A stretch of 35,913 nt of DNA from a virus. The position numbers and the translations under genes are program-made. The DNA is taken from positions 1 through 35,913 of IMG/VR virus record IMGVR_UViG_3300021432_000004; one strand, 5' to 3'. The notes under the pieces were generated by a model. The model saw only the letters and a list, made by a program, of their open reading frames with translations. It was not told the origin of the DNA and did no database searches. Below, piece after piece: positions 2,680-33,430 of the stretch (position 1 is the stretch's first letter; every line of letters starts with the position of its first letter).

Positions 2680-3480
2680 ATGTTCTACTACTCTCACCAC
2701 ATTGGCGATTACAGACGCGATACTTCGCACCTTTCCCTGCTGGAGCATGGAATTTATCGTCAAATGCTGGATCAATACTATCTCGATGAAAAGCCCATAT
2801 GCGCAGACGATGCGAAGCTTATGCGCTCGCTATGCGCTCGCAGTGCGGATGAGATACAGTCCGTCAAAAATGTGCTTAAAGACTTCTTTTTATGCACTGA
2901 AGACGGGTATGTACACAAGCGATGTGACATAGAAATTGAAGGATTCCACGCAAAATCTAAGTCGGCAAGCGAGTCTGCAAAGGCAAGATGGGAGCGGTTA
3001 AAGGGCAAAAATCATGCGAACGCATCAGTTAATCATGCGAACGCATTAAATCCGCAATGCGATGGCAATGCTAACCATAAACCAATAACCAATAACCAAG
3101 AACCAGTAACCAATGAACCAGTAACCATAAACCCTGAATCTTCAAAGAAAGGTGGTTTATCAAAAGGTTCTAGGTTGTCGCCTGAGTGGATGCTTCCGAA
3201 AATTTGGGGGGAATGGGCGCTTGAACAGGGCTATTTGTCTGCCGACCATGTACGCTTGCAAGCCGAGAAGTTCCGGGATTACTGGATTGCCCAGCCTGGA
3301 GCAAAAGGTCGCAAGGTCGATTGGTACGCTACTTGGCGAAACTGGATCAGGAATTCTGAAAGTCGCTCACCGACAAGCGGTTCGCCGAAAAATGGTGGAA
3401 TCGTCAATGGTATGGGAGCAAATCTCGCGACCAGCATAGGAAGTCTTCAACGTTACTTGGAGAAACACAATGAAAGCTGA
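2680..3480 (+). CDS. DUF1376 (YdaU-like) replication-associated protein
   Basis: N-terminus MFYYSHHIGDYRRDTSHLSLLEHGIYRQMLDQYY matches the DUF1376 signature. Low-complexity N/P/T linker, then a basic W-rich C-terminal domain. Confidence 0.85.
   Translation: MFYYSHHIGDYRRDTSHLSLLEHGIYRQMLDQYYLDEKPICADDAKLMRSLCARSADEIQSVKNVLKDFFLCTEDGYVHKRCDIEIEGFHAKSKSASESAKARWERLKGKNHANASVNHANALNPQCDGNANHKPITNNQEPVTNEPVTINPESSKKGGLSKGSRLSPEWMLPKIWGEWALEQGYLSADHVRLQAEKFRDYWIAQPGAKGRKVDWYATWRNWIRNSESRSPTSGSPKNGGIVNGMGANLATSIGSLQRYLEKHNES
3010..3133 (+). repeat. Cluster of short direct repeats inside the DUF1376 linker (iteron-like)
   Basis: AATCATGCGAACGCAT at 3010-3025 and 3031-3046. GAACCAGTAACCA at 3100-3112 and 3115-3127. 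TAACCATAAACC at 3072-3083 and 3122-3133. Confidence 0.7.
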
Positions 3481-27844: not shown

Positions 27845-29146
27845 ATGAGTACTGCACCGACTAGCATCTATCTGACCCAATTCATGGGACAGGTCTACGA
27901 TCAAGCCGACCAAGGCGCTTGCGTGCCTAATGCCATGATGGCATCGATTAATTTGATCGAGCGCGAACAAGGCAAACAGGCATTTAACGGCTCCAGGGAT
28001 TTCGTGTATTGGAATGGGCAAGAGGACATTTCTCACCATTCCATACCCTATGGGACAGTTACCTCGGAAGTCCTGGCTGATTTAGAGACGAAAGGCGTCG
28101 CGCCGGAATCCATGTGGTCCTATAACGACACCAATGCACTGACAAAGGCGCCGGATGCCGTCTATCAGGAAGCGCTGAAGCATACGATAACCAGCTACGA
28201 CGCCGACTTGTTGGCACCGGCTCAGCAAAATTATGTAATGCTGAATTGGATTGTCGGGGAATTGAAGCAGGGCAAGCCGGTGCAGATGGATTTCAATGCC
28301 AAGACTTGGCTAACCTATGAGCATGGAGCATTGAATACATTGCACGTTCCAGTTGATCCTAATGGTGCTGGATTACTTGGAGGCCATTGCACGACAATTG
28401 TAGGCTATGATGCACATTTGGATGCTTCTCCACAAAACCCACTTGGTTCTCTCATCATTCAAAATTCATGGGGGACAGGTTATGGCGACAACGGATTAGA
28501 AGTGATTCCTTTGGCTGAATTCCCTGGAGATTTTAGTCCTATCAATGGACAGCCTAATGTGTGGGAATTGTATGCAATCAGTGGCTTTGAAGGTGTTGAC
28601 CAGAAATACACAGCTTCTAAAGCTCAAGTGTCTGACGCCTATACGACGATCTTGCAACGCGCGCCAGAAGCGGCCGGCATGAACTTTTTTTCCAGTTTGT
28701 TGGACAATGCAACGGTCAATCTTGATCAGATTTACGACAGCATGTTTAACTCTTCCGAAGGCCAAGCTATCTACGGCGGCATGAGCCATGCGCAGATCGT
28801 CACGCAGATGTATCGCTCAGTGCTCAATCGTGATCCTGATGCTGCTGGGTTTGCGTTCTTCTTGAACAGGTTAGATACTGGCGCATGCACGCCTGGGCAA
28901 ATGTATGAGCAGACCATTGCCGCAGTTAAGGGCATCACATCCGGCAATGATTTGATGGGACATGACTATCTGCTGAATAAAGAGGATATGGGGGAGTATT
29001 ACAGTATCGCGATGCAAATCGACGGCACTCACAGCGCGTTGGCACATAACATTATTTCGCAAGTTACGTCTGACGCCAATCAGTGCCAAATCGTCAAAGT
29101 GGGCATTGCGCCACAGTTGGGCGCGGATTGGAACGTGCATTCTTAA
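27845..29146 (+). CDS. Papain-like (C1) cysteine peptidase fused to two DUF4214 repeats
   Basis: Catalytic-type motifs DQGACVPNA (Cys), GGHCTTIVGYD (His) and IQNSWGTGYGDNG (Asn). C-terminal LQRAPEAAGMNFF and LNRDPDAAGFAFFLNRL are DUF4214-like. Confidence 0.85.
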   Translation: MSTAPTSIYLTQFMGQVYDQADQGACVPNAMMASINLIEREQGKQAFNGSRDFVYWNGQEDISHHSIPYGTVTSEVLADLETKGVAPESMWSYNDTNALTKAPDAVYQEALKHTITSYDADLLAPAQQNYVMLNWIVGELKQGKPVQMDFNAKTWLTYEHGALNTLHVPVDPNGAGLLGGHCTTIVGYDAHLDASPQNPLGSLIIQNSWGTGYGDNGLEVIPLAEFPGDFSPINGQPNVWELYAISGFEGVDQKYTASKAQVSDAYTTILQRAPEAAGMNFFSSLLDNATVNLDQIYDSMFNSSEGQAIYGGMSHAQIVTQMYRSVLNRDPDAAGFAFFLNRLDTGACTPGQMYEQTIAAVKGITSGNDLMGHDYLLNKEDMGEYYSIAMQIDGTHSALAHNIISQVTSDANQCQIVKVGIAPQLGADWNVHS

Positions 29147-30103: not shown

Positions 30104-30352
30104 TTAATCGGAGCCGGAGCCGTAGCCGTAGCCGTAGCCGGAGCCGGAGCCGTAGCCGTCGCCGTCGCCGTAGCCGGAGCCGGAGCCGTCGCCGTCGCCG
30201 TCGCCGTCGCCGGAGCCGGAGCCGTAGCCAGAGCCGGAGCCGTAGCCGGAGCCGTAGCCGTCGCCGGAGCCGGAGCCGTCGCCGGAGCCGTCGCCGTAGC
30301 CGGAGCCGTCGCCGGAGCCGTAGCCGGAGCGAAACACTTTATCTGTAATCAT
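30104..30352 (-). CDS. Gly-(Ser/Tyr/Asp) dipeptide-repeat protein, 82 aa
   Basis: From ATG 30352 (alternative GTG 30373): MITDKVFR followed by 74 residues made only of G, S, Y and D in a strict alternation of X and G. Confidence 0.65.
   Translation of the reverse strand: MITDKVFRSGYGSGDGSGYGDGSGDGSGSGDGYGSGYGSGSGYGSGSGDGDGDGDGSGSGYGDGDGYGSGSGYGYGYGSGSD
30107..30328. repeat. Imperfect hexanucleotide tandem array (GCCGNN on + strand), about 37 units
   Basis: Read directly: GCCGGA/GCCGTA/GCCGTC units. Coding for GS/GY/GD on the minus strand. Confidence 0.9.
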
Positions 30353-30707
30353 GGATGCTCTCACGTATTCCACTGGCCACAGGAATCAACTCACAAACGC
30401 CAGTCAAATAAATTTCAGGATTGATTACGTCGAGTTTTGATTTTCCAGGTTGCAGCCCTTTTTGGGCTACACCCGAAAGCGCGACTCCATCAGCGGCTTT
30501 CCAACTCCACAAACGCCGGGAATTTTTCAGAATGACGTTTTCGCCATCTACGCTGACCACTTCGCCAGCATGCACGCCGGCCGCATAGCATCGCGCGATG
30601 ACGTACTTTCCTACCATTGGGTTCTGCAAAGCTGTTTGCGTTTGTGATGAGCTAAACAAAGAGGCTAATTCTTTGGCTTGGCCGATTGTCAAATCATTGA
30701 TATTCAT
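30339..30707 (-). CDS. Hypothetical protein, 122 aa (conserved-looking phage early protein)
   Basis: AAGGAGAAAG RBS region upstream of ATG 30707. Globular composition. Confidence 0.75.
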   Translation of the reverse strand: MNINDLTIGQAKELASLFSSSQTQTALQNPMVGKYVIARCYAAGVHAGEVVSVDGENVILKNSRRLWSWKAADGVALSGVAQKGLQPGKSKLDVINPEIYLTGVCELIPVASGIRESIHDYR

Positions 30708-31021: not shown

Positions 31022-31660
31022 TCAGAAAGGGATATCTTCGTCTAAATCAATTTCAGACAGTCCTGATTGATGCTGAATCGATTGTTGTGATGATTTCTTT
31101 TTCAAAGGCCGGTCGCTTAATTGTGCAAGCAAAACAGGTAGCATTTCTGGCTTGGTTTTCTTATCAAGAATTTCTGATGCAACCATTTCAGTAGCAGAGT
31201 CAAAAACCTGGAACAATTCAAGACGCCAAGCTGTTTCACCTGTCTTTACTGCGTCCTTCATTTTTTCGTATTCAGTAGAGCGAAACAACACACCAATTGG
31301 TTTATTCAACAAATCCGCGAATACTTCTGCATCTACTATTTCGTTTGCGCGTGTCTCATTATTCCAACGATCTACCTTGCCACTTGATGGCTTGATATTT
31401 CTAAGGCGCAAGCACGTCATGATAGCCATCAAAGCTTTGAAGCCAACAAGTTGAGAGCCCTCTTTGTCTGTCGTCCATATATCAAAGCGTGTAGTCCGAT
31501 TATCGTTATTCTTAAAAGTAAAGCCGATACCGTGCGTACCTTTCTTGCTGCTGACTAATTTTTCAGCGCGAGTAAAAATGCCTTTATATTTCCCAGTATC
31601 AGTTAAATAATTGCTGATTTTTTCTGCTTCACGCGCTGATTGTGTATTGAGTTCGTACAT
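31022..31660 (-). CDS. Phage single-strand DNA-binding-like protein (DUF669-type) with SSB C-terminal tip
   Basis: Ends LSEIDLDEDIPF, the canonical acidic SSB tail. Sits directly downstream of the Sak4-like ATPase. AAGGA RBS. Confidence 0.75.
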   Translation of the reverse strand: MYELNTQSAREAEKISNYLTDTGKYKGIFTRAEKLVSSKKGTHGIGFTFKNNDNRTTRFDIWTTDKEGSQLVGFKALMAIMTCLRLRNIKPSSGKVDRWNNETRANEIVDAEVFADLLNKPIGVLFRSTEYEKMKDAVKTGETAWRLELFQVFDSATEMVASEILDKKTKPEMLPVLLAQLSDRPLKKKSSQQSIQHQSGLSEIDLDEDIPF

Positions 31661-31662
31661 GG

Positions 31663-32310
31663 TTAATCCTTGGTTAAATAATAGGCTTGGATTGCATCGT
31701 CAACGAGTTTTAAATCGTTTTCAATATGCTCGGTTTCAAAAAGTCCCATTGGGGACTTACATGTATTGCTACCATTGTTTTGCGTTTCAAAAATATAGTT
31801 TTGATTGACGACCTTTGTTTGCAAAACGATTGTCAACATGGATTCTACTGGGCAGGCTTGGTCTATCATCTTGCCGATTGTTTTTGCTTTCGTCTGACCG
31901 CTTTCGCTTACCTCTGTATGACCCAAAAGATAGACACGGACATCTTCAGCCATGCCAGATGTAGCCATCAATAAATCCCAAGCAGCGCGTCCTATCTCGG
32001 TAAATTTTTGATAGCCTTTTTCATCTGAGCGGCGCATGAAAGAATTTGTCATCGTCAAATTCCAGTCATCTATCACGATTATTTTCCGCTTTGTTTTTTG
32101 CATTAAATTTATTATTTTTGCAGAGTCATCGCAGACAAAAATATTCCCTTCCTTACAGGTTTGTGCATTGAAATATTTCCAATGCGAAGACCTAAAAGGC
32201 AAAGGCTTTTTTATTGGTTGAATCAGGAGGGTATTTTGTGGATCGAGATTGCGAAGACTGGTAGATTTTCCTGTGCCAGATTCGCCTATGATGAGCGCTG
32301 CTATAGACAT
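31663..32310 (-). CDS. Sak4-like (AAA_24-type) RecA-fold ATPase
   Basis: Walker A GESGTGKST, Walker B KIIVIDDW. About 215 aa, paired with the SSB-like gene. Confidence 0.8.
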   Translation of the reverse strand: MSIAALIIGESGTGKSTSLRNLDPQNTLLIQPIKKPLPFRSSHWKYFNAQTCKEGNIFVCDDSAKIINLMQKTKRKIIVIDDWNLTMTNSFMRRSDEKGYQKFTEIGRAAWDLLMATSGMAEDVRVYLLGHTEVSESGQTKAKTIGKMIDQACPVESMLTIVLQTKVVNQNYIFETQNNGSNTCKSPMGLFETEHIENDLKLVDDAIQAYYLTKD

Positions 32311-32557: not shown

Positions 32558-32753
32558 TAATAAGCGCCAAAATAATCAACGCTGATATCACACAAAGTTT
32601 TATGACAGTTCGCGTAAAACTTTCTTCCGATGGCAAGCCCAACATCGCGTCAGATAGCTGATGCGGCCGGTTCAGCTTCTCGCGTACCTTAATAGCGCGC
32701 TTGATTGTGCGGCGTGCACTGAGGTCGCTTAGGTAAGCGCGAAGGTGTTTCAT
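32544..32753 (-). CDS. Small tail-anchored membrane protein, 69 aa
   Basis: C-terminal hydrophobic helix VIKLCVISALIILALII. ATGA-type overlap with the Cys-repeat gene. Confidence 0.65.
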   Translation of the reverse strand: MKHLRAYLSDLSARRTIKRAIKVREKLNRPHQLSDAMLGLPSEESFTRTVIKLCVISALIILALIIEKY

Positions 32754-33430
32754 TTTGAAGCTTCTTCTTCAGCCAAGCGGCGCATATCAGCCATAGCAGT
32801 TTCATTGCTTTCATAAAACCGCGTAGGACTAACTAGAAGATCAGGCGAGCTTGCATGGTATATCAGCAGTGCAGCTAATGGCGTATCGTGAAAACGCTCC
32901 AATTCCTTACCAGCTTCGCCAGCCAAATGTACGACCCAGCCAGCGCGGCAATGCGTTGTCTCGCAACTGTGCCAGGTAGACATATTCAGAGCATCAGGCT
33001 TGCTGACAGCAGCTAAAACGGTTTGGTGGATATTGTCGATTATTGGAATTGCTGGCGCGCCCAGATTTCCAGAAGTCGCATCTGGTTCAGCGCACAAGCC
33101 TTTTTTATTCCATAGATTGGCGATATGGTAGCAGTCGGAGCAGCGGGAGCAGCTGGAGCAGCGGGAGCAGCGGGAGCAGCTGGAGCAGTCGGAGCAGCGG
33201 GAGCAGCAGAAGCAGCGGGAGCAGCTGGAGCAGCTGGAGCAGTTGGAGCAGTCGGAGCAGCGGGAGCAGCCGAAGCAGCGGGAGCAGCCGAAGCAGTCGG
33301 AGCAGTCGGAGCAGTTTATGCAATTCTGGCACTCATTCAGCGATTCCAGTGCCTCCCGTGCAGCTTCTTCGCTGCCGAAATATTCAACGCTGCATTTATT
33401 GCCGTTTTTGTCTTCGATCCAGGTTGTCAT
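32750..33430 (-). CDS. Cys-X-X repeat protein, 226 aa, with non-repetitive C-terminal domain
   Basis: ATG 33430 with AAGGA RBS. 23 consecutive CXX triplets, then a domain containing WHSCETTHCRAGW. Confidence 0.75.
   Translation of the reverse strand: MTTWIEDKNGNKCSVEYFGSEEAAREALESLNECQNCINCSDCSDCFGCSRCFGCSRCSDCSNCSSCSSCSRCFCCSRCSDCSSCSRCSRCSSCSRCSDCYHIANLWNKKGLCAEPDATSGNLGAPAIPIIDNIHQTVLAAVSKPDALNMSTWHSCETTHCRAGWVVHLAGEAGKELERFHDTPLAALLIYHASSPDLLVSPTRFYESNETAMADMRRLAEEEASK
33125..33331. repeat. 9-nt-periodic tandem array (GGAGCAGCN on + strand) encoding the CXX triplets
   Basis: Read directly. It produces spurious long ORFs in several frames on both strands. Confidence 0.9.

Follow-up and report, generated by a model that had tools for sequence, protein, structure and literature searches.

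The combination of a small beta-barrel with a glycine-rich, disordered tail is already known. The Gly-dipeptide (Arg-Gly) tails of SmD1, SmD3 and LSm4 are an established eukaryotic theme. In the Hfq protein of Acinetobacter, redundant 'GGFGGQ' repeats and an acidic tip accompany the Sm core and shape RNA binding and autoregulation (PMC11617691). In Escherichia coli SSB, phase separation depends on contacts between the disordered linkers, and an acidic tip competes with single-stranded DNA (ssDNA) for the barrel (PMC7584906). The current study concerns the virus record IMGVR_UViG_3300021432_000004 of IMG/VR, positions 1 to 35,913 (the whole 35,913-nt stretch analysed, hereafter the window), and within it a gene at 30104–30352 encoding a short protein in which Gly alternates with Ser, Tyr or Asp (the Gly-X gene). 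Comparison with other genomes shows that the Gly-X protein belongs to a widespread phage family, present at more than 80 loci, in which a DUF6948 protein encoded by the adjacent gene is an obligate partner. What is new, relative to the known systems, is the strict Gly-X polymer of Ser, Tyr and Asp, its distribution amongst phages and its encoding by a separate, coupled gene.

The features of this two-gene cassette in the window are as follows.

30339–30707, minus strand: DUF6948 partner gene, 122 amino acids (aa); Pfam PF22253, E = 2e-25.
30104–30352, minus strand: Gly-X repeat gene, with its ATG at 30352 and a TAA stop at 30106–30104, from the list of open reading frames (ORFs) and the translation.
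30329–30352, minus strand: short basic-aromatic head, MITDKVFR, which fits the head pattern of the family.
30107–30328, minus strand: (X-Gly)37 array, 37 hexamers of the form KMC-GGC.
30339–30352, minus strand: overlap of the DUF6948 gene end and the Gly-X gene start, 14 nt, with Gly-X in the +1 frame.
30358–30362, minus strand: weak Shine–Dalgarno (SD)-like GAGAG, 5 nt upstream of the ATG and within the last DUF6948 codons.
30190–30225, no strand assigned: 36 nt (six hexamers, 12 aa) missing from a second assembly, contig L081, whose product is 70 aa; the placement within the repeat is ambiguous.

The 82-aa product consists of the head followed by a 74-residue (X-Gly)n array of 36 Gly, 17 Ser, 10 Tyr and 10 Asp plus a terminal Asp. 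Gly occupies alternate positions throughout, the last pair being Ser-Asp instead. The hexamers comprise TCCGGC (15 copies), TACGGC (10), GACGGC (10), TCTGGC (one) and TCCGAT (one). Tandem Repeats Finder reports a period of 6 in 36.5 copies (30112–30330, score 249), and on the plus strand the array reads as 36 GCCGKM units. A preliminary description of this gene had given the same head and 74-residue array, about 37 hexamers and a 14-nt overlap with the upstream gene; the translation agrees, 37 hexamers were counted and the overlap is exact.

A tblastn search with the window DUF6948 protein retrieved 17 GenBank phage records. In all six of those opened first (Ralstonia NK-7, Pectobacterium Ymer, Vibrio IKEMa6-1, Iodobacter phiPLPE, Chlorobiaceae CV-1-33 and Manatee Spring podovirus), a G-X array ORF adjoins DUF6948 on the downstream side. 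A scan of IMG/VR revealed 74 further DUF6948 loci. Where downstream sequence exceeded about 130 nt, as it did at 71 loci, a G-[S/Y/D] array lies within 400 nt on the same strand in every case; the three without an array have only 0–18 nt downstream. The arrangement is shared by three of three contigs from metagenome-assembled genomes (Ramlibacter, Cellvibrionaceae and a gammaproteobacterium). In MW202478 the gene order is reversed, with the array gene upstream of DUF6948, and the linkage is retained. Amongst the array-linked loci, DUF6948 identity to the window protein falls to about 35%, and the hosts of the cassette range from Ralstonia to Chlorobiaceae and gut bacteria. The window shows the features of the family: an adjacent DUF6948 gene on the same strand, a basic-aromatic head, alternate Gly, an array free of Lys and Arg, and a stop after the array.

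The preliminary description had proposed such a comparison of homologues and synteny. Its main omission was the upstream gene, since DUF6948 is an obligate partner of the array and is fused to it elsewhere. Its remark that the protein resembled no known phage protein no longer stands, given the number of phage loci that encode a homologue; the likeness it drew to the [G/S]Y[G/S] domains of eukaryotic phase-separating proteins is upheld at the level of the motif, with 10 such triplets in the 74 residues.

A search with a chimeric head-array-barrel query identified 32 distinct metagenomic proteins in which a DUF6948 domain and a G-X array lie in one polypeptide. Seventeen have the order barrel-array, with the array as a C-terminal tail (e.g. 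P0300), and 15 have the order array-barrel (e.g. P0301, P0302 and P0313); the composition of the fused arrays is the same as that of arrays in separate genes. Because 32 proteins carry both parts, in either order, the array can be regarded as a tail module of the barrel, and that the window ORF is a real gene encoding such a module is, in our judgement, highly probable. The fusion in both orders, together with the obligate adjacency, is strong comparative evidence that both parts act in one complex. The window Gly-X gene would then be a split version of the barrel tail, cut off as a coupled gene; its array is a separate +1-frame gene and so is not a covalent tail of the Hfq C-terminal domain or SSB linker type. 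Fusions surfaced only with the chimeric query, and were absent from the 150 best DUF6948 representatives and from 94 DUF6948 segments within loci. Many of the array-barrel fusions (P0301, P0302, P0314 etc.) begin with a head of the form IAADW.DE.G...WLR. Related head-bearing array proteins are labelled by the Joint Genome Institute as members of the TIGR02996 family (repeat-companion domain); P0003, one head-bearing member, had no match in NCBIfam at E <= 0.01.

Linkage extends to arrays with additional domains. A composition-driven protein search found 27 small proteins in which G-[S/Y/D] arrays are joined to at least five unrelated small domains. Genomic context was usable for seven. P0016, P0027, P0001, P0017 and P0018 come directly after a DUF6948 gene and P0003 after a truncated DUF6948 remnant, which makes six linked in total; P0005 does not follow DUF6948. 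The profile phrog_18306 spans both parts, DUF6948 matching its positions 144–231 and heads plus arrays matching 8–143. A tblastn search of GenBank phages with the P0016 head returned nothing. The suggestion that the C-terminal domain of P0005/P0018-type array proteins is a divergent DUF6948 was rejected (hhalign probability 0.04), as was the suggestion that the C-terminal domains of P0022 and P0025 are those of flanking pentapeptide-repeat proteins, a known DNA-mimic architecture, since BLAST found no similarity. In two gut-phage contigs the DUF6948 partner consists of an N-terminal helix, a short array and a large C-terminal domain. This partner (L092 1776–2294; L093 1770–2333; P0352) is 170–220 aa in length, and its conserved C-terminal domain, ...FAHGETL.EA...WHH.LTGSC..GR..., has no match in Pfam or PHROG.

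The junction between the two genes is also conserved. Of 76 loci, 63 have an overlap of 17, 14, 11 or 8 nt, and 68 place Gly-X in the +1 frame relative to DUF6948; at several, a small gap separates the two genes. Relatives usually have AAGGAG at the position of the weaker GAGAG of the window. This geometry of overlap, +1 frame and SD-like site suggests that the two genes are translationally coupled. The heads follow the pattern M..(N/S)K(V/I/T)(F/W)(R/T)(S/D)G, with a mean net charge of +0.9 and an aromatic residue in 81%, and the K-V-F-R of the window head lies mostly beyond the overlap. A programmed +1 ribosomal frameshift within the overlap, joining the two ORFs into a barrel-tail fusion, would account for the prevalence of the +1 frame and the SD-like sequence just upstream, and would match the barrel-array fusions found elsewhere. 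However, an ATG (occasionally GTG) stands at the right SD spacing in nearly all loci, the overlap CAT GAT TAC AGA TAA contains no shifty site recognizable by inspection, and a gap, as found in several loci, offers no such overlap. This explanation is considered exceedingly unlikely.

The codons indicate what is being conserved. The X codons end in C in 42 arrays and in T in 20, each array being nearly mono-codonic, and the composition at X is S.36/Y.33/D.22 in the C-ending versus S.35/Y.34/D.24 in the T-ending arrays. In five arrays Gly is encoded by GGG or GGT, not GGC. The Gly-X frame alone is delimited, at more than 70 loci, by a conserved start (ATG, rarely GTG) with its SD-like site, a short, conserved head and a stop 0–3 residues past the array. 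Because lineages differ in synonymous codons yet share the S/Y/D mix, selection acts on the protein and not on a DNA repeat, and the preliminary reading of the ORF as a genuine coding gene is strengthened by the conserved start, head and stop and by this codon-independent pattern. In the window array itself, Gly is encoded by GGC in all 36 cases and Ser by TCC in 15 of 16; across the long window ORFs these codons have shares of 51% and 18%, respectively. Two further frames across the array are also stop-free, one encoding Ala-Thr/Pro on the same strand and the other Ala-Gly/Val on the opposite strand. Neither has an ATG, GTG or TTG start, and both were rejected as coding, the peptide being wholly altered in lineages with T-ending codons.

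The same type of repeat has been reported before in a different light. In phiPLPE, a (KMGCCG)35 'GC-rich repeat' was interpreted as non-coding DNA that might be a new kind of att site (Comeau et al., 2012; PMC3391216). At record coordinates 46,046–46,255, this repeat is an array directly after gp84, a DUF6948 protein; it lies in an unannotated gene (EU876853; L004 1173–1409) for a 78-aa Gly-X protein, which overlaps gp84 by 17 nt. The window array is of the same type, a tandem KMGCCG repeat of about 35 copies. Were (KMGCCG)n an att site or a recombination or replication signal, with the frame incidental, the codon monotony within each array, the stop-free alternative frames and the difference in copy number between two assemblies of this phage could all be accommodated. 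Against this, the nucleotide unit varies by lineage, in the third base of X and in the use of GGC, GGG or GGT, with the S/Y/D-Gly peptide conserved; start, SD-like site, head and stop bracket one frame only; and in 32 proteins array and DUF6948 share a single reading frame as one polypeptide. In addition, no integrase was detected among the ORFs tested in this phage of about 36 kb. The coding signatures, lineage-specific units, fusions and lack of a detected integrase contradict the att-site reading, which is not supported, and a DNA-level function for the repeat is regarded as extremely improbable.

Array length varies from 33 to 137 aa (median 78), and the length differences are in frame. 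The ENA contig L081 (2356–2568) is an independent assembly of the window phage, with zero mismatches over flanks of about 4 kb, and the 36 nt that it lacks represent either a real slippage polymorphism or collapse of the repeat during short-read assembly. Fast change in length, homogeneity of the arrays within each phage and this indel would be expected of a slippage-prone hexamer that had expanded in a small ORF and persisted as tolerated, functionless sequence. We consider this very improbable: the array is retained beside DUF6948 although the barrels share only 35–45% identity and the hosts are as distant as Ralstonia, Chlorobiaceae and gut bacteria, its composition is constrained, and fusions arose in both orders.

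Existing annotations of the family are inconsistent, the GenBank labels being 'hypothetical' or 'fibroin heavy chain-like'. In CV-1-33 (MT192033; L005 3270–3527) the array gene is annotated in the wrong, Ala-Met, frame (gene_25), and in MW202478 (L094 1218–1421) the array is annotated in this frame and fused onto DUF6948 (UOF77468.1). In NK-7 (PP919442; L001 2153–2566) the array gene is labelled 'fibroin heavy chain-like protein'. The Gly-X family has no model of its own in Pfam, PHROG, NCBIfam or PADLOC, where the window protein gave sub-threshold compositional matches only (TrAA12, CFAP143, keratin head and sulphur globule protein), and a megablast search of GenBank phages with the Gly-X region gave no match. 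A literature search found nothing relevant on DUF6948, the array motif or 'fibroin heavy chain-like' phage proteins.

The partner belongs to a large family. One database contains over 1,500 relatives and a second has 1,848 cluster representatives, and no functional name is attached to any relative listed. An AlphaFold model built from a 45-sequence alignment has a predicted local distance difference test (pLDDT) score of 88; in it, a linker joins an N-terminal helix to a barrel of five strands, into which a short helix is inserted. In a Foldseek search of the PDB with this model, the best 50 matches were all Sm, LSm or SmAP proteins (E 1e-3 to 1e-2; target-normalised template modelling (TM) score 0.5–0.7). 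A search of a viral structure library returned other DUF6948 proteins together with weak matches to 'Sm-like' and 'RNA binding' phage proteins. DUF6948 is confidently predicted to be an Sm/LSm-like small beta-barrel. A phmmer comparison of DUF6948 with PDB sequences found nothing relevant, and membership of the Sm family is not established, because no Sm or Hfq sequence motif is detectable; the predicted resemblance is one of fold alone. There are no invariant catalytic-looking residues across distant members. One relative, P0195 (216 aa), is a tandem double barrel. The DUF6948 protein is probably oligomeric, and its binding, oligomerization and nucleic-acid affinity are putative.

The Gly-X protein, modelled alone by AlphaFold from a single sequence, has a pLDDT of 41 and no secondary structure. 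It is predicted to be disordered, as the preliminary description had supposed. The window array has a strict period of 2 without a GG doublet, which distinguishes it from RTX repeats (GGXGXD) and from the period-3 Gly repeats of collagen-like proteins and polyglycine-II bundles; in its variable length, low complexity and predicted disorder it resembles the tails of Hfq and SSB. The pooled composition of the family is G 44%, S 17%, Y 14% and D 11%. In 90% of 69 arrays the aromatic content is 9% or more, the only exception being a doubtful member. Acidic residues have a median of 12% across arrays and fall below 5% in three clear members, one of which has Asn for Asp; these three keep 16–27% aromatics. 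Basic residues are nearly absent, Lys and Arg together occurring 10 times in 4,028 array positions. Because aromatics are universal, acidity is dispensable and Lys and Arg are excluded, a polymer of Tyr stickers and Gly/Ser spacers is a better fit than a DNA-mimicking polyanion.

The polyanion had been put forward in the preliminary description and is weakened by these figures. As a polyanionic decoy, the protein would mimic DNA or RNA and sequester or block a host nucleic-acid enzyme (restriction enzyme, RecBCD, nuclease or SSB client), with DUF6948 as helper or chaperone. The window protein has a net charge of −10, a pI of about 4 and no basic residue in its array; its gene is an early-region neighbour of recombination genes, and comparable neighbourhoods include genes for end protection, Mu Gam-like ones amongst them. 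Competition of acidic or acidic-aromatic tails with nucleic acid for a barrel is known for SSB (PMC7584906) and for the acidic tip of Hfq (PMC11617691). The charge is sparse, however, at about 13% acidic residues or approximately one per 7 residues, and it is nearly lost in the three bona fide members described above. The established mimics Ocr and ArdA are likewise acidic early phage proteins, but the Gly-X protein differs from them in its low and dispensable acid density, in having no predicted folded or rigid scaffold and in the lack of any sequence or profile match to known DNA mimics; nor did it match anti-defence or defence libraries. The obligate link and the fusions imply that the barrel is more than a helper. 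A decoy role is considered unlikely.

The strict alternation of Gly raises the alternative of a silk- or amyloid-like polymer, in which period-2 cross-beta sheets, with Gly on one face and Ser, Tyr or Asp on the opposite one, would form fibres or a gel and DUF6948 would serve as nucleator, cap or holdase. Gly alternation is a hallmark of beta-sheet silk repeats, Ser and Tyr are amongst the other residues of silk fibroin heavy chain (GAGAGS/GAGAGY), as they are here, and the NK-7 homologue is named after that protein. Sub-threshold compositional matches to keratin heads and sulphur-globule structural proteins point the same way, and translational coupling would suit a chaperone for an aggregation-prone product. 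The Gly-X protein, in contrast to fibroin, lacks Ala, is rich in Asp, is cytoplasmic and has 82 aa versus about 5,000 aa in a secreted protein. Charged Asp at 10–24% disfavours packed sheets, AlphaFold predicts no strands (weak evidence), and array length varies widely. The head is not a signal peptide, and the gene has an early location and no structural-module context. Such a polymer seems quite unlikely.

The preliminary description had also raised the possibility of a substrate for modification. On this view, phosphorylation, nucleotidylation or another modification of the exposed Ser and Tyr residues would either activate the protein or serve as a diversion for a host defence kinase or transferase. 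The array offers 27 Ser and Tyr residues out of 74, spaced by flexible Gly, and this composition is conserved. Against this, the cassette is not accompanied by any conserved gene for a kinase, a transferase or another enzyme that could carry out the modification. DUF6948 alone is conserved with the array, and it has no invariant residues of catalytic appearance. We regard this as very unlikely.

The explanation towards which we lean, on balance, is that the Gly-X protein is the low-complexity tail subunit of a conserved two-gene phage cassette. The array would be a flexible polymer of Tyr stickers parted by Gly/Ser spacers, usually acidic and never basic, whose length may drift as hexamers slip. 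Together with an oligomeric barrel, whether as an attached tail or as an associated protein, it would provide many weak contacts. Their effect could be to tune the binding of RNA or ssDNA by the barrel; alternatively, they could link barrel oligomers to one another early in infection, giving a higher-order assembly or a condensate in the company of recombination and replication proteins. A sticker-and-spacer tail is proposed because of the flexibility, the recurring Tyr, the lack of positive charge and the link to a probably oligomeric small barrel; tuning or cross-linking of the barrel is proposed because of the precedents of barrels with Gly-rich tails, Hfq and SSB. This mechanism of assembly or regulation is put forward tentatively. 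More speculative, and in our view doubtful, is a bolder version in which tailed phages would carry a two-component condensate-forming module: an Sm-like ring and a FUS-like Tyr/Gly/Ser polymer, in trans or in cis, would build a membraneless compartment or fuzzy scaffold serving phage recombination, replication or RNA control early in infection, with material properties tuned by hexamer slippage. The condensate or low-complexity idea of the preliminary description is compatible with the proposed tail subunit.

Several observations weigh against the proposed tail subunit and its mechanism. The Sm-like assignment depends on a predicted structure with modest scores (Foldseek E of about 1e-3, TM 0.4–0.7), and a Pfam scan of 10 diverse members at E up to 10 found DUF6948 only, plus one sub-threshold match to SM-ATX (E = 0.034). 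DUF6948 is near-neutral, with a median pI of 6.9, and ring formation and nucleic-acid binding are putative. Frameshifts in the metagenome assemblies or errors of gene calling might explain some of the 32 fusions. The array carries a net charge of about −0.1 per residue, which would work against its self-association without a partner or counter-ions. Tyr and Asp are spaced only slightly more evenly than chance would give (mean z of about −0.3), and the disorder prediction is that of a single sequence. Charge complementarity between barrel and tail was considered and is not supported (r = −0.09, the barrel being near-neutral).

With about 36 kb, the window represents an almost complete phage genome. 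It encodes a replication initiator, a Holliday junction resolvase-like protein, a large terminase, a portal, a scaffold and an SU10-type capsid protein. The cassette lies in a leftward operon in the order Sak4-like annealing protein, SSB, 94-aa ORF, DUF6948, Gly-X gene and three small ORFs. The neighbourhood of recombination genes noted in the preliminary description is thus present, in the following two genes.

31022–31660, minus strand: SSB (PHROG 743, E = 3e-29).
31663–32310, minus strand: Sak4-like annealing protein (PHROG 2872, E = 2e-84).

Neither of these is conserved alongside the cassette in other phages, and no window gene besides DUF6948 is kept with the Gly-X gene in the co-conservation comparison. 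Across loci, the 127 flanking ORFs fall into 105 PHROG families; those of known function are mostly SSB, RecT/Bet/Sak4-like annealases, NinB/Orf, Mu Gam-like proteins, exonuclease VIII and Ref-like nuclease. In a single metagenomic contig (L090 1419–1927), a gene for a CsrA-family RNA-binding regulator lies directly upstream of the DUF6948 and array pair, a hint of an RNA setting.

Small repeat proteins seem to be abundant in the early regions of cassette-bearing phages. A pentapeptide-repeat protein (ANLYG...; L029 3620–4369) and a protein of YG(D/N)ARV hexapeptide repeats (L017 15–443) are each encoded beside a cassette; a BLAST comparison revealed no likeness of these flanking proteins to the non-array domains of the array proteins used as queries. 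In the window operon, a period-9 tandem repeat of about 20 copies (33130–33314, minus strand) encodes Cys-X-X triplets (CSDCSDCFGCSRC...) with C-ending codons. It lies in a 226-aa protein (32750–33430, minus strand, likely ATG at 33430) whose C-terminal domain matches phrog_31265, and a homologue beside the cassette in L039 has about four triplets only, so that array length varies here too. Elsewhere in the window, the heptamer TAACCAA occurs about eight times at 3072–3127, within the primosomal/replication-initiator gene (2680–3480), a position reminiscent of origin iterons that lie within an initiator gene such as lambda O. A 433-aa protein (27845–29146, plus strand), encoded where the structural module ends, contains a papain-family Peptidase_C1 domain (24.5 bits, above the cut-off) and two DUF4214 repeats, and may be a lysis or depolymerase-type enzyme.

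These comparisons turn an orphan curiosity into a defined, widespread and uncharacterised phage module with a clear partner relationship, for which cultured carriers exist in the Pectobacterium Ymer group, Ralstonia NK-7 and Iodobacter phiPLPE. An 82-aa polymer of putative stickers and spacers with a 122-aa barrel would offer a minimal natural system for the control of small-barrel nucleic-acid-binding proteins by low-complexity tails, and could show whether phages use eukaryote-style low-complexity phase separation. If the bolder version is true, the cassette would be the first phase-separating system of the [G/S]Y[G/S] type to be described in a bacterial virus, and a natural split scaffold of barrel and low-complexity tail. 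The public record is corrected in respect of the att-site reading in phiPLPE, the wrong-frame annotations in two GenBank phages and the 'fibroin-like' label. The arrays are also a warning case for gene callers, because several frames across them are stop-free.

Amongst known low-complexity proteins, FUS, EWS and TAF15 share with the Gly-X protein the Gly/Ser spacers, the recurring Tyr in [G/S]Y[G/S] triplets and predicted disorder. The Gly-X protein differs in lacking Gln and Asn, in its strict period of 2, in being acidic, where FUS is near-neutral and the Sm RG tails are basic, and in being a tiny stand-alone protein; no homology is implied. SSB resembles the cassette in combining an oligomeric small barrel (the oligomeric state being inferred here) with a variable, Gly-rich low-complexity linker; in SSB the linkers supply multivalent contacts on which phase separation depends. 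The two also share a setting amongst recombination and replication functions, the window operon having an SSB gene 670 nt upstream. The SSB barrel is a tetramer of the oligonucleotide/oligosaccharide-binding fold, in contrast to the predicted Sm-like fold of DUF6948; its linker is rich in Gly, Gln and Pro with few Tyr and is not a strict dipeptide repeat, and its conserved DDDIPF-type tip is absent from the Gly-X protein. Hfq differs in other respects. Here the tail is a separate, coupled polypeptide with a period of 2 rather than 6 and with Tyr in place of Phe, Asp is spread along the array and not confined to a tip, DUF6948 lacks Hfq/Sm motifs and the carrier is a phage. The two systems are alike in joining a small barrel, of the Sm type in Hfq and predicted to be so in DUF6948, to a variable-number repeat of Gly and aromatic residues with acidic residues, and in 17 relatives of the cassette the repeat is, as in Hfq, a C-terminal tail.

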